A stretch of DNA of 16,750 nucleotides from an uncultured archaeon (GCA_964590575.1 CAZPWM010000070.1:1-16750); one strand, 5' to 3'. Positions 3,836 through 10,589 are shown, numbered from the stretch's first letter. Program-made: numbers and translations. Notes: generated from the sequence alone by a model not told the origin.

Positions 3836-4759
3836 ATGCCTCTCAAGGATGAACTTAATGGCTATCTAAGGTTACCTCGAACATTCTTTGGAATTCCAGA
3901 TTCTAAAACCGGGAATCCAGATGTTGGCGTTATTGGTGTTCCATATGATATGACATCGAGCTATATGCCCGGTCCTCGTTTCGGACCAGATGCCATTCGA
4001 CGAGCAACAGATAGCGAACGATCTCACAGCTATTCATTATCTTTGGGACGAACACAATCAATAGATGAGCCTTTATCGAAGAGAATTACCTTAGAAGATG
4101 TAGGAGACCTAGAGGTACCCTTACGACTTCCAGAAGCAGCAGCCATCGATATCTCTGAAGCGTGTACTAAACTAGCTACAAGAAGTAGTCGCTTACTCTT
4201 TCTTGGCGGGGACCATTTCATTTCATATCCAATAATCAAAGGGCTTAAGAGAGGTCGACCCGGCCGTTATGGTCTCGTGTATTTAGATGCGCACGCGGAT
4301 TTATACTCGGACATGGGAGGATATCAACTGTCACACGCTACGGGAGTGCGGAGGATGGTTGATGACGAACTAATATCAATTGAAGACATCGCCGCATATG
4401 ATCTCCGTTCTGCGCTACCAACACAGCGAGAAGAGATGACTGGAAGCAAAACACCGATTTTATCAAAGGACCAGTTCCACAATCGTGTGAAGAAGATTGG
4501 TGAACAGGTCGATTTTCTTTATGTCTCAGTTGACATGGATGTCCTTGCTCCACAAGTTGCACCTGGTGTGAGTCATCCTGAATCAGGAGGTCTCTCTATG
4601 GTCGACCTAGTGGAACTTCTCATATCAGCTTTTAGAACAGGTAAAGTTCGGTATGCAGATGTAGTAGAGCTAAATCCCCTTATTGACCCAACAGGCATCA
4701 CTGCCATTGCTGCTCGAGACATCGTGAAGGAAATCTTGACTGGATTTGCTGCTCCGTAA
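3836..4759 (+). CDS. speB: Agmatinase / ureohydrolase (arginase family)
   Basis: Family motifs GVPYD...SYMPGPRFGPDAIR, GGDH, DAHAD, SHAT, SVDMDV, PGVSHPESGGL and VELNP. The metal ligands are present. Confidence 0.88.
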   Translation: MPLKDELNGYLRLPRTFFGIPDSKTGNPDVGVIGVPYDMTSSYMPGPRFGPDAIRRATDSERSHSYSLSLGRTQSIDEPLSKRITLEDVGDLEVPLRLPEAAAIDISEACTKLATRSSRLLFLGGDHFISYPIIKGLKRGRPGRYGLVYLDAHADLYSDMGGYQLSHATGVRRMVDDELISIEDIAAYDLRSALPTQREEMTGSKTPILSKDQFHNRVKKIGEQVDFLYVSVDMDVLAPQVAPGVSHPESGGLSMVDLVELLISAFRTGKVRYADVVELNPLIDPTGITAIAARDIVKEILTGFAAP

Positions 4760-4789: not shown

Positions 4790-5533
4790 ATGACAGAAAT
4801 GAACCTATCGAGTTTGAAGACTACAGATGAAATCACTACTCGTGCTGCATTAGCACTACGTGAGCTAGGATTTGGAGCTCACGAAACTGCAGTGATTTTA
4901 GCTCTAAATACAAGAGAGTCTGCAACAGTTTCTGATCTCGCAGATGAAACAGGAATTCATCATGCTAATCTGTATTCTGTGCTCGATACGTTGGTCGGAA
5001 AGGGATATGTCGTTCTTCAGGAAGGACGACCTAAAGTGTACCAATTTGCTCCCCTCTCACATCTAAAAGAAACACTGACATCAAAACTGAAGCAGCTGTT
5101 TGAAGACCTCGTGAAAATACAAGAGTCACGTGTTTTAACAAAAGCCATTCCTGCCCTCATCTATACAATAAGAGGCAACAATGATGTGAAGTCCAAGATG
5201 ATTTCAATGATTGCTAGAGCGGAAGACACGATTCTTCTAGTCGCTCCCAAACTAGATTATTTTGGTGAAGGTGCCATATCGGCTTTAGAAGAGGCAGCAG
5301 GACGAGGGGTAAAAATACGTTCTATTTTAGGTAAAAAGAGTAACTTCGAAATCCCTAACTTCCATCAACGTATTAAGGAGGATACATTAGCAATCGATAT
5401 AGTGATTGACTCAGAGGAGGCTCTGATTTCCATGCCTGACCTAAGTGTGTGTGGATGGGCAGACAATCCTTTGATCTCGATGCAACTCGAAGGGTTTCTA
5501 GAACAGACATGGCAAATGTCAAAGAAGGTATGA
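4790..5533 (+). CDS. TrmB-family transcriptional regulator (N-terminal HTH plus PLD-like effector domain)
   Basis: LRELGFGAHETAVILAL...TVSDLADETGIHHANLYSVLDTLVGKGYV...GRPKVY, then MIARAEDTILL...AAGRGVKIR...IVIDSEEALI. Confidence 0.9.
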   Translation: MTEMNLSSLKTTDEITTRAALALRELGFGAHETAVILALNTRESATVSDLADETGIHHANLYSVLDTLVGKGYVVLQEGRPKVYQFAPLSHLKETLTSKLKQLFEDLVKIQESRVLTKAIPALIYTIRGNNDVKSKMISMIARAEDTILLVAPKLDYFGEGAISALEEAAGRGVKIRSILGKKSNFEIPNFHQRIKEDTLAIDIVIDSEEALISMPDLSVCGWADNPLISMQLEGFLEQTWQMSKKV

Positions 5534-5536
5534 TTC

Positions 5537-6907
5537 ATGGTTGATTACGATGTTATTATTGCTGGTGCAGGGACCGGAGGTGCAACCATTGCCTACACAC
5601 TTGCTAAAAAGGGTCATTCAGTTCTCCTCATTGATAGAAAAGAAAGAGACAATATTGGCAACAAGACCTGTGGGGATGCTCTTGGTTCTCACCATATCAC
5701 TGAGCTGAGAGAACTTGTCGGGATTCCTGAGCTTCCAAAAGGTATTGTTGAGTATGAGGTGAATGGTATTGACCTCATTGCTCCTGATAGAGACCATCGC
5801 CTGAGGATGGAGGGCCCCACAACAACTGGGATGTCCTTCAACAGACTCAAGATGGGGCAATGGTTTGTTGGACTCGCAGAAAGTGCTGGTGCGGAAGTAT
5901 GGGCTTCTACTCGAGTGAAGCGGCTGATTTTCGAAGAAGGCAAAGTTGCTGGAGTCAAACTCTCAAAGGAAGATGGACCTGAAAAGGACATCAAAGGTCG
6001 AATAGTTGTTGATGCTACTGGAGCAACAGGGATGCTTAGAATGCAACTTCCTGAATCCTCACCTGTTGAACGAAATATAGCTAGCGAAGACAGAATGGTT
6101 GCGTGGCGGGACATCTATGAGACCCCTGATTTCGATTTTGAAACTCCAGACATCCTTGAAATATTCTGGAATCAAAAGGAAACCCTGGGAGGTTATACTT
6201 GGGTGTTCCCACAAGGCAAAAACCGCGTTAATGTAGGAAATGGTGTAATGACAATTGAGGGTCATCGTAATCCAAAAGACATTCAATATGATTTCGTAAA
6301 GAAAACCTGGATGGATTCGTGGGGTGATATCAAGGTCCTCGATAGCAGTGGAGGAGTTGCACCCATACGAAGACCCATTGACACGATGGTTGACAACAAC
6401 TTCATGCTAGTTGGTGACGCAGCTTGCCAAGTGAATCCAATTCATGGCGGCGGTATAGGCTCTTCACTCTTGGGTGGTGCTCACGCGGGTATTGTTGCTT
6501 CAGAGGCTCTGGAAAAAAATGATACATCTATTGGAGCGCTGTGGGATTACAATCCGAGATATCACAAGAGCTATGGCTCAAAACAAGCAGCACTTGATGT
6601 CTTCAGGTGGTTCTTACTTAATATCACGAATGAGGACATAGACTTTGCTTTCAAGAAGCAAATCATTAAGGCTAGTGACTTGCTTGATACTTCCATGACC
6701 GGAGAGGTCAATTTTGGTGTAGGTGATAAATTCAAGCGTTTGGTGTCAGGATTCGGTAAGATTCCACTTCTCCTTCGTGTATCGAAAGTTGCCAACTTGA
6801 TGAACGATATTCGTCGGGTGTACAGTGAATATCCATCTTCTCCAAAGGGCTTGAAAGCTTGGACAGAGAAGCTAGCGCCAATATACACGGCAGCCAAAGA
6901 AGCATAA
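5537..6907 (+). CDS. Digeranylgeranylglycerophospholipid reductase (geranylgeranyl reductase, FAD-dependent)
   Basis: GAGTGG FAD motif, KTCGDA catalytic Cys, GGYTWVFP, VPIRRP-like segment, GDAACQVNPIHGGG and C-terminal YGSKQAALDVFR...YP. The layout matches the Sulfolobus acidocaldarius-type GGR as recalled. Confidence 0.9.
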   Translation: MVDYDVIIAGAGTGGATIAYTLAKKGHSVLLIDRKERDNIGNKTCGDALGSHHITELRELVGIPELPKGIVEYEVNGIDLIAPDRDHRLRMEGPTTTGMSFNRLKMGQWFVGLAESAGAEVWASTRVKRLIFEEGKVAGVKLSKEDGPEKDIKGRIVVDATGATGMLRMQLPESSPVERNIASEDRMVAWRDIYETPDFDFETPDILEIFWNQKETLGGYTWVFPQGKNRVNVGNGVMTIEGHRNPKDIQYDFVKKTWMDSWGDIKVLDSSGGVAPIRRPIDTMVDNNFMLVGDAACQVNPIHGGGIGSSLLGGAHAGIVASEALEKNDTSIGALWDYNPRYHKSYGSKQAALDVFRWFLLNITNEDIDFAFKKQIIKASDLLDTSMTGEVNFGVGDKFKRLVSGFGKIPLLLRVSKVANLMNDIRRVYSEYPSSPKGLKAWTEKLAPIYTAAKEA

Positions 6908-6910
6908 GAG

Positions 6911-6953
6911 AGATTGTAGCATGCTCTAATGACGGAGCATGCTCCTACTATCT
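6911..6953 (+). repeat. Intergenic combined direct/inverted repeat (AGCATGCTC x2), possible hairpin
   Basis: AGCATGCTC at 6918-6926 and 6936-6944. GAGCATGCTC is itself palindromic. The flanks AGATtGTAG / CTACtATCT extend the stem. Confidence 0.55.
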
Positions 6954-6969
6954 TCGAGAGGACAGTCCG

Positions 6970-7941
6970 ATGCGTGTTGTTGGATCAGCAGCAGGAATCA
7001 ATCTTCATGCACCAGATGACGCCTACTTTTCATACTTCAACAGCCCCTACATTGGCCACAACATCGGGTCTGCTATTGACGTCTATCCACATCATCAGGA
7101 ATGGGGTGGTCCTATTGAAACCCCGATTTCGGGGAAGGTAGTCAAGATTAAGAAGATGAGGATGGGACAAGCAAAACAGTTTCCTACGAATGAGTATGAC
7201 TACGGTGTTGGAATTCTACCTGAAGGTTCGGTATCTGATATTGTTCGTATAATGCATTGTGAACCAACTGTAACAGAAGGAGAAACTGTCAATCTTGGAG
7301 ACCATATTGGGAGTGCAATTCGTTCACGTTATTTCAACTACTGGACAGGACCACACTATCATGTCGAGATTCAACCATTAGAATCATTTCACCGTTCGAG
7401 TAAATCATATCCACTAGAACTAGAGTATCATTTTGAATCAAAGAGACCTACAAATACGCAGAAGGATATTGGATTTCTAGTAGAATCCGTGACAGACGAC
7501 CATGTCACTGGTTATGCAGAGAATCTTGGATATGCTGCTATTAGAGATCTAGTTGGTCTCTCAGCCTTAAACCGAGAAAAGGAAACCGTAGGAATTCTAG
7601 ATGGGGGTTTCTCACACTACAAGATGGGGGGCGTAATCGGTACAACTGAGCTCAGCCAAGGCGAAACTATCATATTACTAGACTCTCCAATCGGTTCTGT
7701 TCGCAACGCTAAATCTGGTGCGAGTGTTTTTAGTAGAGGCCCCTTGATCACCTCATTCTTGGATGGTACTGAGTTACGTGGACTATCATGCTTCATCTAT
7801 ACGAAACACTACATGAGAAAAAAAATCCCACAGATAATTCTCATACCGAAAAAGTATGGTCAATTCAAGGGACTCTTCAATGAAGGAGACATTTGTGAAC
7901 TTCGAATTACTAGCAACAGCAACACGATTAAAGCAGATTAG
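6970..7941 (+). CDS. Peptidase M23-like (duplicated hybrid motif) zinc metalloenzyme with unknown C-terminal domain
   Basis: H-x6-D (HNIGSAID), TPISGKVV, RIMH, VTEGETVNLGDHIG and TGPHYHVEI (HxH). Start placed at ATG 6970 because the ORF-track start overlaps the GGR gene. No signal peptide. Confidence 0.7.
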   Translation: MRVVGSAAGINLHAPDDAYFSYFNSPYIGHNIGSAIDVYPHHQEWGGPIETPISGKVVKIKKMRMGQAKQFPTNEYDYGVGILPEGSVSDIVRIMHCEPTVTEGETVNLGDHIGSAIRSRYFNYWTGPHYHVEIQPLESFHRSSKSYPLELEYHFESKRPTNTQKDIGFLVESVTDDHVTGYAENLGYAAIRDLVGLSALNREKETVGILDGGFSHYKMGGVIGTTELSQGETIILLDSPIGSVRNAKSGASVFSRGPLITSFLDGTELRGLSCFIYTKHYMRKKIPQIILIPKKYGQFKGLFNEGDICELRITSNSNTIKAD

Positions 7942-7953
7942 GTCAAGTCTGAG

Positions 7954-8943
7954 ATGATTACCTTGGTCGAGAGAGTGCGCTTATCAATTGGGACAGCGAT
8001 TCAAATTGGGATAGAATCAGGAGGAAAAGTCCCCAACTTCACAACTGCTTTCTTCATGACTTACAGAGTAGGAGGATGTGAGGCGAACTGCGCATTCTGT
8101 CCTCAAGCTCAAGAGAGCACTTCTGCGTCAGATAGGCTCTCGCGGCTTTCTTGGCCTGAATACAATCTTAGCGAGGTGATTGAGAAATGGCCTCCTCCAG
8201 GTCAGTTCAGACGTATCTGTATTCAGACAATCTGCTATCCTGATGTAGTTCAGGATGTTGTGGACATTGTTAGTGAAATTCGTAAGGTTTCAAAATTACC
8301 AATCTCAGTCGCTATTCATCCAATCTCAACCAATGATATGGTCAAGTTGAAAGAAGTCGGGGTATCAAACATTGGGATTGCACTTGACGCAAGCACACCA
8401 GAAATCTTTGAAGAAATCAAAGGAGTAAAGCGGGGAGCAGATTATCGATGGGAAACTCATATACGAGGCCTCGACGATGCACTGAAGATTTTCGGAAAGG
8501 GACAAGTAACTACGCATCTTATAGTTGGCTTGGGAGAAACTGAGAAAGAAGCTGCACAGTTCGTCATCAAAATGTATGAGAGGGGAATTAATGTGGGACT
8601 ATTCGCCTTTACAAACATTAAAGGCACGTCACTAGAAAATCAATCCCCTCCAGATCTTTCCTCGTATCGAAGGATACAGGTAGTGCGGCAATTGGTTTCA
8701 CAAGGTCTTCTATCTTCAGACCAGATACAGGAAACTGAAGACGGACAAATATCAATCGTCATAGATGAAGAAGTACTTCGAGAAGCCTTATCATCTGGAG
8801 CGGCATTTCAAGTGACAGGATGTAAAGATTGCAATCGACCTTTCTACAATGAGAGACCTCGAGGTCCAATGTACAATTATCCCCGACCTTTGTCTGAAGA
8901 GGAAATATTGCGAGCTATAGAAGATACAAACCTGGTGGCGTGA
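7954..8943 (+). CDS. lipS2: Radical SAM protein, archaeal-type lipoyl synthase subunit LipS2 (biotin synthase-related)
   Basis: CEANCAFC (CX3CX2C), THLIVGLGETE, and C-terminal VTGCKDCNRPFYNERP resembling the LipS2 TxGCPxC(N/D)RP motif. Adjacent to lipoate ligase genes. Confidence 0.8.
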   Translation: MITLVERVRLSIGTAIQIGIESGGKVPNFTTAFFMTYRVGGCEANCAFCPQAQESTSASDRLSRLSWPEYNLSEVIEKWPPPGQFRRICIQTICYPDVVQDVVDIVSEIRKVSKLPISVAIHPISTNDMVKLKEVGVSNIGIALDASTPEIFEEIKGVKRGADYRWETHIRGLDDALKIFGKGQVTTHLIVGLGETEKEAAQFVIKMYERGINVGLFAFTNIKGTSLENQSPPDLSSYRRIQVVRQLVSQGLLSSDQIQETEDGQISIVIDEEVLREALSSGAAFQVTGCKDCNRPFYNERPRGPMYNYPRPLSEEEILRAIEDTNLVA

Positions 8944-9711
8944 ATGGAAGAGTTTCGATTCATAGACTTGGAGGAACATACCGCATTTGAGAATATGGCT
9001 ATTGACGAAGCAATAATGCTAGCAATACAAGAGGATAAGGCTCCACAAACACTCCGACTCTATCGTTGGAATCCTTCTGCTGTTTCTATTGGAACTTTCC
9101 AAGGCATGATGGATGAAGTGGATGTTGATTTCTGTGAATCGATTGGAATTGACTTCATTCGTCGAATAACAGGAGGCGGTGCAGTCTACCACGATTATGA
9201 AGGAGAAGTTACCTATAGCATCATTATGCCAAAGGATCATAGATTAGCACCCAATGACATTCTAGAATCGTACCGACTATTATGCGGAGGGATAGTCAAG
9301 GCTCTTGAACACTTGGGTATCGAAGGTGAATTCAAACCAATCAACGATGTTGATGTTGGGGGAAGGAAGGTCTCTGGGAATGCGATGACAAGACGTCATG
9401 GTTGTGTTCTTCAACATGGAACCATCTTGCTAGATTTGGATGTCAACCTGATGTTTACTATTTTGAAAGTGTCTCAGGAGAAGATTTCGGATAAGATGAT
9501 TGCTGATGTTAAAGAGCGAGTCACCTCGATACGTGACATTCTTGGTCGGGATGTACAGATTAGTGAGCTGAAGGATGCATTACAACTTGGATTTTCTGAA
9601 GCCTTGGATATCAAATTAATCCCTAGTAAACTGAGTACGGAGGAGCAGAATACATCAAAAAGATTGGCATTGGAAAAGTACTCCTCCCACGAATGGAACT
9701 TCTCGAGGTGA
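8944..9711 (+). CDS. lplA: Lipoate-protein ligase catalytic (N) subunit
   Basis: NMAIDEA, TLRLYRW, RRITGGGAVYHD, GRKVSGNA (catalytic Lys) and LQHGTIL. The C-terminal accessory domain is missing. Confidence 0.9.
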   Translation: MEEFRFIDLEEHTAFENMAIDEAIMLAIQEDKAPQTLRLYRWNPSAVSIGTFQGMMDEVDVDFCESIGIDFIRRITGGGAVYHDYEGEVTYSIIMPKDHRLAPNDILESYRLLCGGIVKALEHLGIEGEFKPINDVDVGGRKVSGNAMTRRHGCVLQHGTILLDLDVNLMFTILKVSQEKISDKMIADVKERVTSIRDILGRDVQISELKDALQLGFSEALDIKLIPSKLSTEEQNTSKRLALEKYSSHEWNFSR

Positions 9712-9716
9712 AAGTT

Positions 9717-9992
9717 GTGCGCGAATCCAGTTACAAGATTCCTGGTGGAAAGCTTGTGAAGGTCAAACTAAGGACTGCTTCTGGAAGGATTTCTGAAGTC
9801 AGAATTCTTGGTGATTTCTTCCTCCATCCAGAGGAAACCCTACAGAAAATTGAAAAATCTCTCATAGGAATTCCCATTGAAGAAACCACCCTCGAGAAGA
9901 TGATTACTCAGGTATTGTTAGAATTTGATGCAACACTAATTGGAGCAACAGCGGCAGATATTGCAAAGGCAATCATGCTGGCAGCAGAATGA
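9717..9992 (+). CDS. lplB: Lipoate-protein ligase accessory (C) subunit
   Basis: KIPGGKLVKV...ISEVRILGDFFLHPEETLQKIEKSLIG is the Lip_prot_lig_C pattern. Start placed at GTG 9717, 5 nt after GAGGTGA (alternatives are 9708 and 9693). Confidence 0.85.
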   Translation: MRESSYKIPGGKLVKVKLRTASGRISEVRILGDFFLHPEETLQKIEKSLIGIPIEETTLEKMITQVLLEFDATLIGATAADIAKAIMLAAE

Positions 9993-10520
9993 TCACATGA
10001 CTGATTCGATGGAGATTATCAAGCGCCTCCGACCAACATCAGTGATATTTTCTACCCTGATATTGGACTTTTCTAGTTTCATCTCGAACTTGTCTTCAAT
10101 ACCAAGATACACCTGTTGAAGTTTTTCAATAGGAGGCTCAGGAACTAAATCCTTGGGACTTTGTGGTTGTATTGCAATCACTCTATCACTTAAGCCTTGA
10201 ATATTCCATATCGTATTCACAATATTGTCCGCCTTCATTCTGTCGGTCGGTGGCGTAACTGCAGCAATGAAGCTCTTTGCTAAATCCTTCCCAAATGGAC
10301 TTACAGTCATTGGACTTCCAATCCAATCTCTATCAAGAAGTAAGATTCCAGAGTGCACCTTCTGGAATCGGTCTATCTTCATTTTGACATCGATGAACTC
10401 CTGGAAACCACCTGGTTTGAGATGTATCTCTTGCATTCCATCTATCATGGGTTTCCTTCCTGCCTCGGTAAAGTTGAAGAACGAAAATAGATTGGTCTTT
10501 TTGAGCTCATCGTAACTCAT
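9993..10520 (-). CDS. Hypothetical protein (soluble, about 175 aa)
   Basis: Protein-like ORF. AGGAGGT at 10530-10536 abuts ATG 10529, so ATG 10520 (9-nt spacing) is the preferred start. Its stop directly abuts the lplB stop (TGATCA). Confidence 0.75.
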   Translation of the reverse strand: MSYDELKKTNLFSFFNFTEAGRKPMIDGMQEIHLKPGGFQEFIDVKMKIDRFQKVHSGILLLDRDWIGSPMTVSPFGKDLAKSFIAAVTPPTDRMKADNIVNTIWNIQGLSDRVIAIQPQSPKDLVPEPPIEKLQQVYLGIEDKFEMKLEKSNIRVENITDVGRRRLIISIESVM

Positions 10521-10589
10521 CAAGAACATACCTCCTGATGAGCTATACTATATGAAACTAAACCACATTAGCCTTTCTCTGTTTGAAGT

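Follow-up and report, generated by a model that had tools for sequence, protein, structure and literature searches.

M23 enzymes are normally exported and act on peptidoglycan or on another extracellular substrate. The locus described here raises the question of what an M23-like enzyme encoded without an export signal would do beside the genes for lipoate assembly in an archaeon. It lies in a stretch of 16,750 bases from an uncultured archaeon (GCA_964590575.1, CAZPWM010000070.1:1-16750), referred to below as the window, and the M23-like gene, abbreviated T, occupies positions 6970–7941 on the plus strand and encodes 323 residues.

Strong comparative evidence, namely operon position, recurrent linkage and co-occurrence, ties T to archaeal lipoate assembly. 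T is a new cytoplasmic two-domain M23-type protein in a lipoate-assembly context. The role tentatively assigned to it, which we regard as a serious candidate though somewhat short of probable, is that of an accessory zinc amidohydrolase of the archaeal LplA/LplB and LipS1/LipS2 lipoylation system, acting at the lipoyl- or octanoyl-lysine arm.

Linkage of T to lipoylation genes

T is followed on the same strand by the genes for LipS2 (7954–8943), a radical-SAM lipoyl synthase subunit (NF053743, 338.3 bits, cut-off 270; PF04055), for LplA (8944–9711), the catalytic, large subunit of the lipoate–protein ligase (PF21948, 196 bits), and for LplB (9693–9992), its small subunit (NF053749, 78.8 bits, cut-off 65; PF10437). 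The NCBIfam model NF053750, LplA_large, gave 213.6 bits with the LplA of the window, under its cut-off of 480. The stop codon of T (7939–7941) and the ATG of LipS2 (7954) are separated by 12 nt, the LipS2 stop codon (8941–8943) abuts the LplA ATG with a gap of 0 nt, and LplA and LplB overlap by 19 nt, which is the tight spacing that had been predicted. By strand and spacing, T is thus placed with lipS2, lplA and lplB in its own genome. The original prediction had put T at the head of this operon; its position directly before lipS2-lplA-lplB was confirmed, but a co-directional gene for a flavin adenine dinucleotide (FAD)-dependent oxidoreductase ends 62 nt upstream.

The same arrangement was observed throughout the taxonomic family of the host, where LipS2 was encoded directly downstream of T in 27 of 29 fetched loci, within 27 nt in 26 of them; the other two loci ended at a contig edge and had no downstream DNA.

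To cover other archaea, 75 loci were collected with a context-blind pattern scan based on a seven-sequence alignment, one genome being taken per species. They span Bathyarchaeia, Jord-/Freyarchaeia, Atabeyarchaeia, Hadesarchaea, Desulfurococcales, Nitrososphaeria, Sif-/Borrarchaeota and Thermoplasmata. Linkage was scored within a limit of 5 kb using hidden Markov models for LipS1, LipS2, LplA and LplB, built from sequences gathered in the analysis. At least one of these genes was found within that distance of T in 23 of the 75 representative loci, and in 22 cases it was within 2.3 kb; many of the unlinked loci have a flank of only a few hundred bases.

The linkage occurs in about ten distinct gene orders, distributed over Thor-, Jord-, Frey-, Atabey-, Bathy- and Hadesarchaea and Thermoproteota (the signs > and < denote gene direction relative to T). 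The order of the window, T>LipS2>LplA>LplB, is that of the Thorarchaeia and recurs in the Bathyarchaeota locus L089, with LipS1 nearby. In ten distinct Jord-/Freyarchaeia loci T>LplB was found, the two genes overlapping or at most 15 nt apart and standing beside genes of coenzyme A (CoA) biosynthesis, and in eight Bathyarchaeia loci the convergent order T><LplA<LplB. Single loci carried LplB>LplA>T (L116), LplA>LplB><LipS2 T>LipS1 (L122) and T>LipS1>.<LplA<LipS2 (L100). A distance of 1.1 kb separates T from <LipS2<LipS1<LplA in the Hadesarchaea (L087), and 3.7 kb including CoaBC separates it from <LipS1<LipS2 in L056/L111. Two Thermoproteota loci showed LplB>LplA..T.

The CoA cluster beside T-LplB in the Jord-/Freyarchaeia comprises genes for CoaBC, a GHMP-kinase (pantoate-kinase-like), phosphopantothenate synthetase, ketopantoate reductase and a pyridoxal phosphate-dependent decarboxylase (L040:8202-11619; L042:116-6694). 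In the Atabeyarchaeia, CoaBC is encoded between T and LipS1-LipS2.

T was also present in 42 genomes of a sample of 401 Thermoproteota, and 20 of these 42 loci were fetched, of which 12 were linked to lipoylation genes. All ten complete Thermoproteota genomes (1.8–3.0 Mb) carried Lpl(AB)>LipS1>LipS2>T, in most cases extended by a gene for an HDAC-family protein, Lpl(AB)>LipS1>LipS2>T>(HDAC). Since this operon is found in ten complete genomes, the question of the function of T is testable by genetics.

Recurrent linkage to, or co-occurrence with, lipS1, lipS2, lplA and lplB was the observation on which the original prediction depended, and both were found, in many lineages and gene orders. In the Asgard sample, a LipS2-family match (E <= 1e-40) was obtained in 132 of 138 genomes with T compared with 158 of 262 without it, and in the Thermoproteota sample in 40 of 42 compared with 105 of 359. 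Together, 172 of the 180 genomes with T have a LipS2-family gene. The families of the Asgard sample listed without a LipS2-family match (f8–f12, f20 and f24–f26; 80 genomes) contained no T at all. These counts were obtained by cross-reading presence tables and are descriptive, because related genomes are not independent and the number of independent events is therefore overstated.

A phylogeny of 93 T sequences, computed quickly by maximum likelihood and omitting 21 of the 29 closely related Thorarchaeia loci, four duplicate contigs and open reading frames (ORFs) below 250 residues, followed taxonomy. The label "linked" changed at least eight times on well-supported branches of this tree.

In addition to the overstatement of independent events, several comparative findings weigh against a role of T in lipoylation. 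No linked lipoylation gene was found in 52 of the 75 representative loci, including most of those from Bathyarchaeia, and most loci outside the linked clades have housekeeping or cofactor genes with no relation to lipoylation as neighbours (cold-shock protein, PurP-type DUF1297/1246, nitroreductase, malate dehydrogenase, riboflavin kinase, CysRS). In family f22, which has 54 genomes with T, no lipoylation gene was seen up to about 7 kb from T in any of the eight fetched loci (L045–L051, L059). LipS2 genomes without T are numerous, 158 in the Asgard and 105 in the Thermoproteota sample, and T is dispensable to the pathway in many of them. The complete Freyarchaeota genome G117, finally, carries T-LplB with no LipS2 match above 63 bits.

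In the same genome no LipA match above 45 bits was obtained; LplA is encoded elsewhere, with a radical-SAM gene, weakly matching both families, about 1.5 kb downstream (C1:1060406-1063085; likewise G118:C412 and G120:C137). This radical-SAM gene may represent a different type of lipoyl synthase.

Such findings could be explained if T were a housekeeping cytoplasmic peptidase with no part in lipoylation, its linkage being due to inherited gene order or to a general cofactor neighbourhood; the unlinked f22 loci and the unrelated neighbours of most loci outside the linked clades are what this explanation would lead one to expect. Inherited synteny alone is nevertheless insufficient, because about ten orders and orientations were found in clades far apart on the T tree. 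Nor does it fit the near-constant company of a LipS2-family gene in genomes with T, or the frequency of linkage itself, as windows of 5 kb on either side of a few lipoylation loci would cover an estimated 1–2% of a 2–4 Mb genome, compared with the 23 of 75 loci observed. We consider a housekeeping peptidase unlikely.

The T protein and its predicted structure

The ORF listed for T begins with TTG and spans 6859..7941 on the plus strand, while the ATG at 6970 yields the product of 323 residues; in the alignment, the homologues share their start methionine with this ATG. The product divides into an N-terminal domain with an M23/LytM fold (6970–7428, residues ~1–153) and a C-terminal all-beta domain (7447–7938, residues 160–323).

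The N-terminal domain contains H30 and D37 spaced by six residues in GHNIGSAID, H96 in RIMH, and H129 and H131 in TGPHYHVE, so that the full set of M23 metal and catalytic motifs is present, in agreement with the original prediction. These five residues were invariant in all 60 diverse homologues and in all 136 family sequences from the fetched loci, a divergent short form included, and for this reason the motifs are not attributable to chance. S25, P26, G114, W125, G213 and G271 were likewise invariant in the 60-member alignment, which contains no invariant cysteine.

At the level of sequence profiles, the relationship to M23 is distant. PF01551 matched residues 46–135 of T with 19.9 bits (E 8.5e-4), below the gathering cut-off of 28.7, the NCBIfam search of T gave no match, and searches of PDB sequences with T returned only chance-level or weak rows. 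Relatives of T carry PF26482 (DUF8155) and PF26483 (DUF8155_C). The membership of T itself is indirect, being based on precomputed matches for the 93%-identical protein P0002 and for most listed homologues; the Atlas placed T with DUF8155 clusters at 0.98.

The family is small, with 215 representative clusters at E <= 0.001 among 1.84 billion representatives. Its members bear the source names "hypothetical protein", "M23 family metallopeptidase" or "MepM/NlpD", and the nearest homologues are named Candidatus Thorarchaeota. The Atlas taxon line suggested bacterial members from Synergistota, but none was recovered, and P0208 proved to be from Thermoproteota. Fusions of T, sought among longer proteins of 567–2000 residues, were not found, which is weak evidence.

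The assignment to M23 rests on the predicted structure, because the Pfam match is below threshold. The AlphaFold2 model computed with the 60-member alignment reached a predicted local distance difference test score (pLDDT) of 93.9 and a predicted template modelling score of 0.92, and its residues ~6–153 are predicted to adopt the M23/LytM fold. Alignment of residues 6–150 to EnpA (6smk) with VIA-align gave a Z of 13.2 with a root-mean-square deviation (rmsd) of 2.4 Å over 116 residues; lysostaphin and LytM followed with Z of 11.5 and 11.3, and 69 chains were at Z >= 8. Foldseek assigned a probability of 1.0 to the matches of the N-terminal domain with lysostaphin, LytM and LytU. The description of T as M23-like thus holds for the fold and the residue set, but not at the Pfam threshold.

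The C-terminal half, originally left unassigned, has kept this status, DUF8155_C being its only label. Modelled alone, residues 160–323 gave a pLDDT of 93.5, and the conserved family motifs GILDGGxxHY and RGLS were identified in this domain. No Foldseek match to the PDB was found at E <= 0.001. Among 48,161 chains aligned with VIA-align, the best Z was 6.2 (AlaX-M, riboflavin-synthase and FNR-type barrels), which falls under the noise level of about Z 8.

The predicted lack of a signal peptide was also confirmed. The highest 19-residue Kyte–Doolittle mean of T was 0.84 and none of the 60 homologues reached 1.6, so that by this measure neither T nor any homologue has a signal peptide or transmembrane segment; in the model, a confidently predicted beta strand starts at residue 2. 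From the absence of transmembrane-like segments in 60 of 60 homologues, it follows that T is soluble and cytoplasmic. Its M23 site is under strong purifying selection, and the host archaea are without murein.

By analogy with LytM and lysostaphin, H30, D37 and H131 would serve as metal ligands and H96 and H129 as catalytic residues, and on the same analogy T is a putative zinc-binding hydrolase. The alternative that T acts without hydrolysis, by binding or activating LplB/LplA or LipS1/LipS2 in the manner of the degenerate LytM proteins EnvC, NlpD and SpoIIQ, has some basis. In the ten Jord-/Freyarchaeia loci, T and LplB overlap at their stop and start codons or are no more than 15 nt apart, which suggests stoichiometric co-production, and the structural search with T also retrieved non-catalytic LytM domains (SpoIIQ, EnvC, DipM); EnvC, NlpD, DipM and SpoIIQ share its fold with Z of 10–11.8. 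These factors act through protein–protein contacts and have lost their metal ligands, whereas T retains all of them, and the invariance of the five residues in 136 of 136 sequences argues for catalysis. A purely non-hydrolytic role is accordingly judged quite improbable. Co-folding of LplA, LplB and T gave a score of 0.00 in an analysis run without controls, which counts neither for nor against such a partnership.

The proposed reaction and its alternatives

Under the preferred reading of T as an accessory zinc amidohydrolase, T would be a soluble two-domain DUF8155 hydrolase whose M23/LytM catalytic domain is packed on a family-specific beta domain and which is presumably co-transcribed with lipS2-lplA-lplB at its own locus. 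The most likely chemistry would be hydrolysis of an amide bond at or beside the lipoyl- or octanoyl-lysine arm. The ligase might thereby be supplied again with lipoate or octanoate released from carrier proteins, lipoyl-peptides or lipoyl-lysine; alternatively, T might clear carrier proteins that are wrongly acylated or have become dead ends. We infer both the hydrolytic activity and the substrate, and hence the role as a lipoamidase or octanoyl-lysine editing enzyme, from these comparisons. The broader proposal, that DUF8155 constitutes a new class of cofactor-arm hydrolases in which the M23 fold was repurposed in the archaeal cytoplasm for cleaving the lipoyl- or octanoyl-lysine amide or its peptide context, is possible but doubtful.

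On the biochemical side, this reading also faces several objections. M23 enzymes are known for cleaving peptide bonds of peptidoglycan, not acyl-lysine amides, and the H-x6-D spacing of T departs from the canonical HxxxD. Directly after T, and overlapping its end, a gene of the HDAC family (PF00850, 188 bits) was found in eight of the ten complete genomes of Thermoproteota (L142:7782-8810, plus strand; same position in L143–L149). As an HDAC-family enzyme is a more conventional candidate for the cleavage of acyl-lysine, T may do something else there, and this neighbour weakens the simple lipoamidase idea. Moreover, the available text of PMC13692748 describes the Thermococcus kodakarensis route with four proteins only, the ligase together with LipS1/LipS2.

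The HDAC-family gene is a second gene of zinc-hydrolase type in a lipoate operon, and it was not found in the fetched T loci of other lineages.

The original prediction of a cytoplasmic enzyme of lipoate metabolism has therefore stood in part: the cytoplasmic M23-fold protein with its full conserved residue set and the recurrent linkage to lipoylation genes were found, but many LipS2 genomes do without T, and the HDAC-family neighbour tells against the lipoamidase example.

The ligase genes direct attention to a different substrate. T pairs most consistently with them, with LplB in the ten Jord-/Freyarchaeia loci and with LplA/LplB in the eight Bathyarchaeia loci, and in archaea lacking acyl carrier protein (ACP) it might provide the ligase with free octanoate by cleaving an octanoyl conjugate or other bound donor, either an amide or a thioester. 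According to the portions of the literature covered (PMC13692748; PMC10332631), the ligase takes free octanoate, that of T. kodakarensis does not use octanoyl-CoA, and it is unclear where archaea without ACP obtain their octanoate. The same portions leave open the servicing of carrier proteins and the roles of accessory cluster genes.

The CoA-biosynthesis genes adjoining the cluster in Jord-/Freyarchaeia and Atabeyarchaeia (CoaBC, pantoate kinase-like protein, phosphopantothenate synthetase) would also suit an octanoate supplier; this neighbourhood, however, was seen only in Asgard lineages related to one another, and common descent of the gene order may account for it. M23 enzymes offer no known precedent for such a substrate, and many genomes with LplAB and LipS2 manage without T. 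An octanoate-supplying role therefore appears improbable.

A further alternative arises from the remark, in the part of PMC10332631 covered, that LipL may be replaced by unknown amidotransferases in some organisms. T would then take an octanoyl or lipoyl group off GcvH and pass it on to another lipoyl domain, and the genome of the window does encode two GcvH proteins and other lipoyl-domain proteins. The zinc-activated water used by M23 enzymes, with no acyl-enzyme intermediate, suits transfer poorly, however, and the family lacks an invariant cysteine. LplA-family genes occur at two more places in the genome (contigs C7 and C23), and a Biotin_lipoyl-domain ORF (C7:32326-32535) is encoded about 1.7 kb away from the one on C7. 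An amidotransferase of LipL type is hence considered highly improbable.

Knowledge of the archaeal LplAB-LipS1/LipS2 route is recent. As an apparently active, conserved zinc hydrolase, judged by its sequence, T is linked to this route across at least two archaeal phyla and is a candidate for one missing step. If the proposed amidohydrolase role is correct, T would provide a recycling or proofreading step for lipoate in archaea, or the missing source of free acyl groups, and it would represent, to our knowledge, the first role of an M23-fold enzyme in the cytoplasm of organisms without murein.

Neighbouring genes and comparison with known systems

Upstream of T, and on the same strand, the window carries an arginase-family gene (3836–4759), a gene for a TrmB-type regulator (4790–5533) and the FAD oxidoreductase gene mentioned above (5537–6907), which belongs to the geranylgeranyl-reductase family (NCBIfam GG-red-SF, 197.9 bits, cut-off 158.8). 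Downstream, an ORF of 178 residues on the minus strand (9993–10529) is convergent with LplB and had no Pfam or NCBIfam match.

The spacer of 62 nt on the 5' side of T contains a perfect 9-bp inverted repeat at 6918–6943, consisting of AGCATGCTC, a loop of 8 nt and GAGCATGCT. In L007 and L013, identical arms precede the orthologue of T, and the corresponding spacer in L019 and L022 holds inverted repeats of 7 bp, the arms in L022 being a truncated version. The repeat may be an operator or form an RNA hairpin. A scan for sigma-70 promoters and terminators yielded 9 sites against 11.1 expected, under a bacterial model applied to an archaeal host.

The FAD oxidoreductase of the window matched NF041080 (DGGGPL_reductase) with 442 bits, under the cut-off of 580, and two paralogues in the genome score almost the same (447 and 431 bits, likewise sub-cut-off). 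Its gene was found upstream of T in 28 of the 29 loci of the host family. It could be an archaeal counterpart of LipT, with a LipT-type role as electron donor.

LipS1 (NF053742) was not found in the genome of the window, which is 91% complete. A LipS1-like gene (~210 bits) was present on a separate contig in 81 of 86 genomes of the same family, so the assembly of the present genome has most likely missed it. A replacement of LipS1 by T was rejected on the same grounds.

Among known systems, the clusters combining sLpl(AB) or LplAB with LipS1/LipS2 (PMC10332631; PMC6067878) are the closest in gene content, in so far as these sources were covered: the window likewise has lipS2-lplA-lplB preceded by an FAD oxidoreductase gene. 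In the part of Tanabe 2023 available (PMC10332631), LipT is the FAD-binding oxidoreductase of bacterial lipS1-lpl(AB)-lipT-lipS2 clusters; the term "geranylgeranyl" does not occur in the covered text of PMC10332631 or PMC6067878. The same work describes two accessory genes, lipY and lipX, the latter for a putative glutamine amidotransferase and translationally coupled to slpl(AB), much as T is to LplB in the Jord-/Freyarchaeia loci. Within the comparisons made, neither name nor fold relates T to LipX.

As originally predicted, the LipS1/LipS2 and LplAB route has no M23 component on record in the literature searched: none of the passages searched assigns an M23 or DUF8155 protein to lipoate assembly, and the name DUF8155 occurs in no paper of the literature searched. 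Within the text covered, "M23" and "peptidase" are absent from PMC10332631, and "peptidase" is absent from PMC6067878 (Cao 2018), from the 2026 review PMC13692748 and from one 2026 preprint.

With respect to chemistry, the reaction proposed for T would be that of lipoamidases and delipoylases such as Lpa of Enterococcus faecalis and the sirtuins CobB and SIRT4. Those enzymes employ an amidase-signature Ser-Ser-Lys site or are sirtuins dependent on nicotinamide adenine dinucleotide, in contrast to the putative zinc site in the M23 fold of T. We know of no homology between T and the known lipoamidase families.

With respect to fold, the nearest counterpart is peptidase M23/LytM (PF01551), as represented by EnpA, lysostaphin, LytM and ShyA. 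T shares this fold with Z from 13.2 to 10 and rmsd of 2.4–3.3 Å over ~110–120 residues, as well as the set of one aspartate and four histidines, and weak profile alignments place its LH and PHxH motifs on ShyA and its AIDxY motif on the 2638A endolysin domain. It differs from these enzymes in falling under the Pfam threshold, in having neither signal peptide nor anchor, and in belonging to murein-less hosts and lipoylation operons. Its catalytic domain is fused to a unique C-terminal beta domain instead of the SH3b or LysM-type modules by which cell walls are bound.

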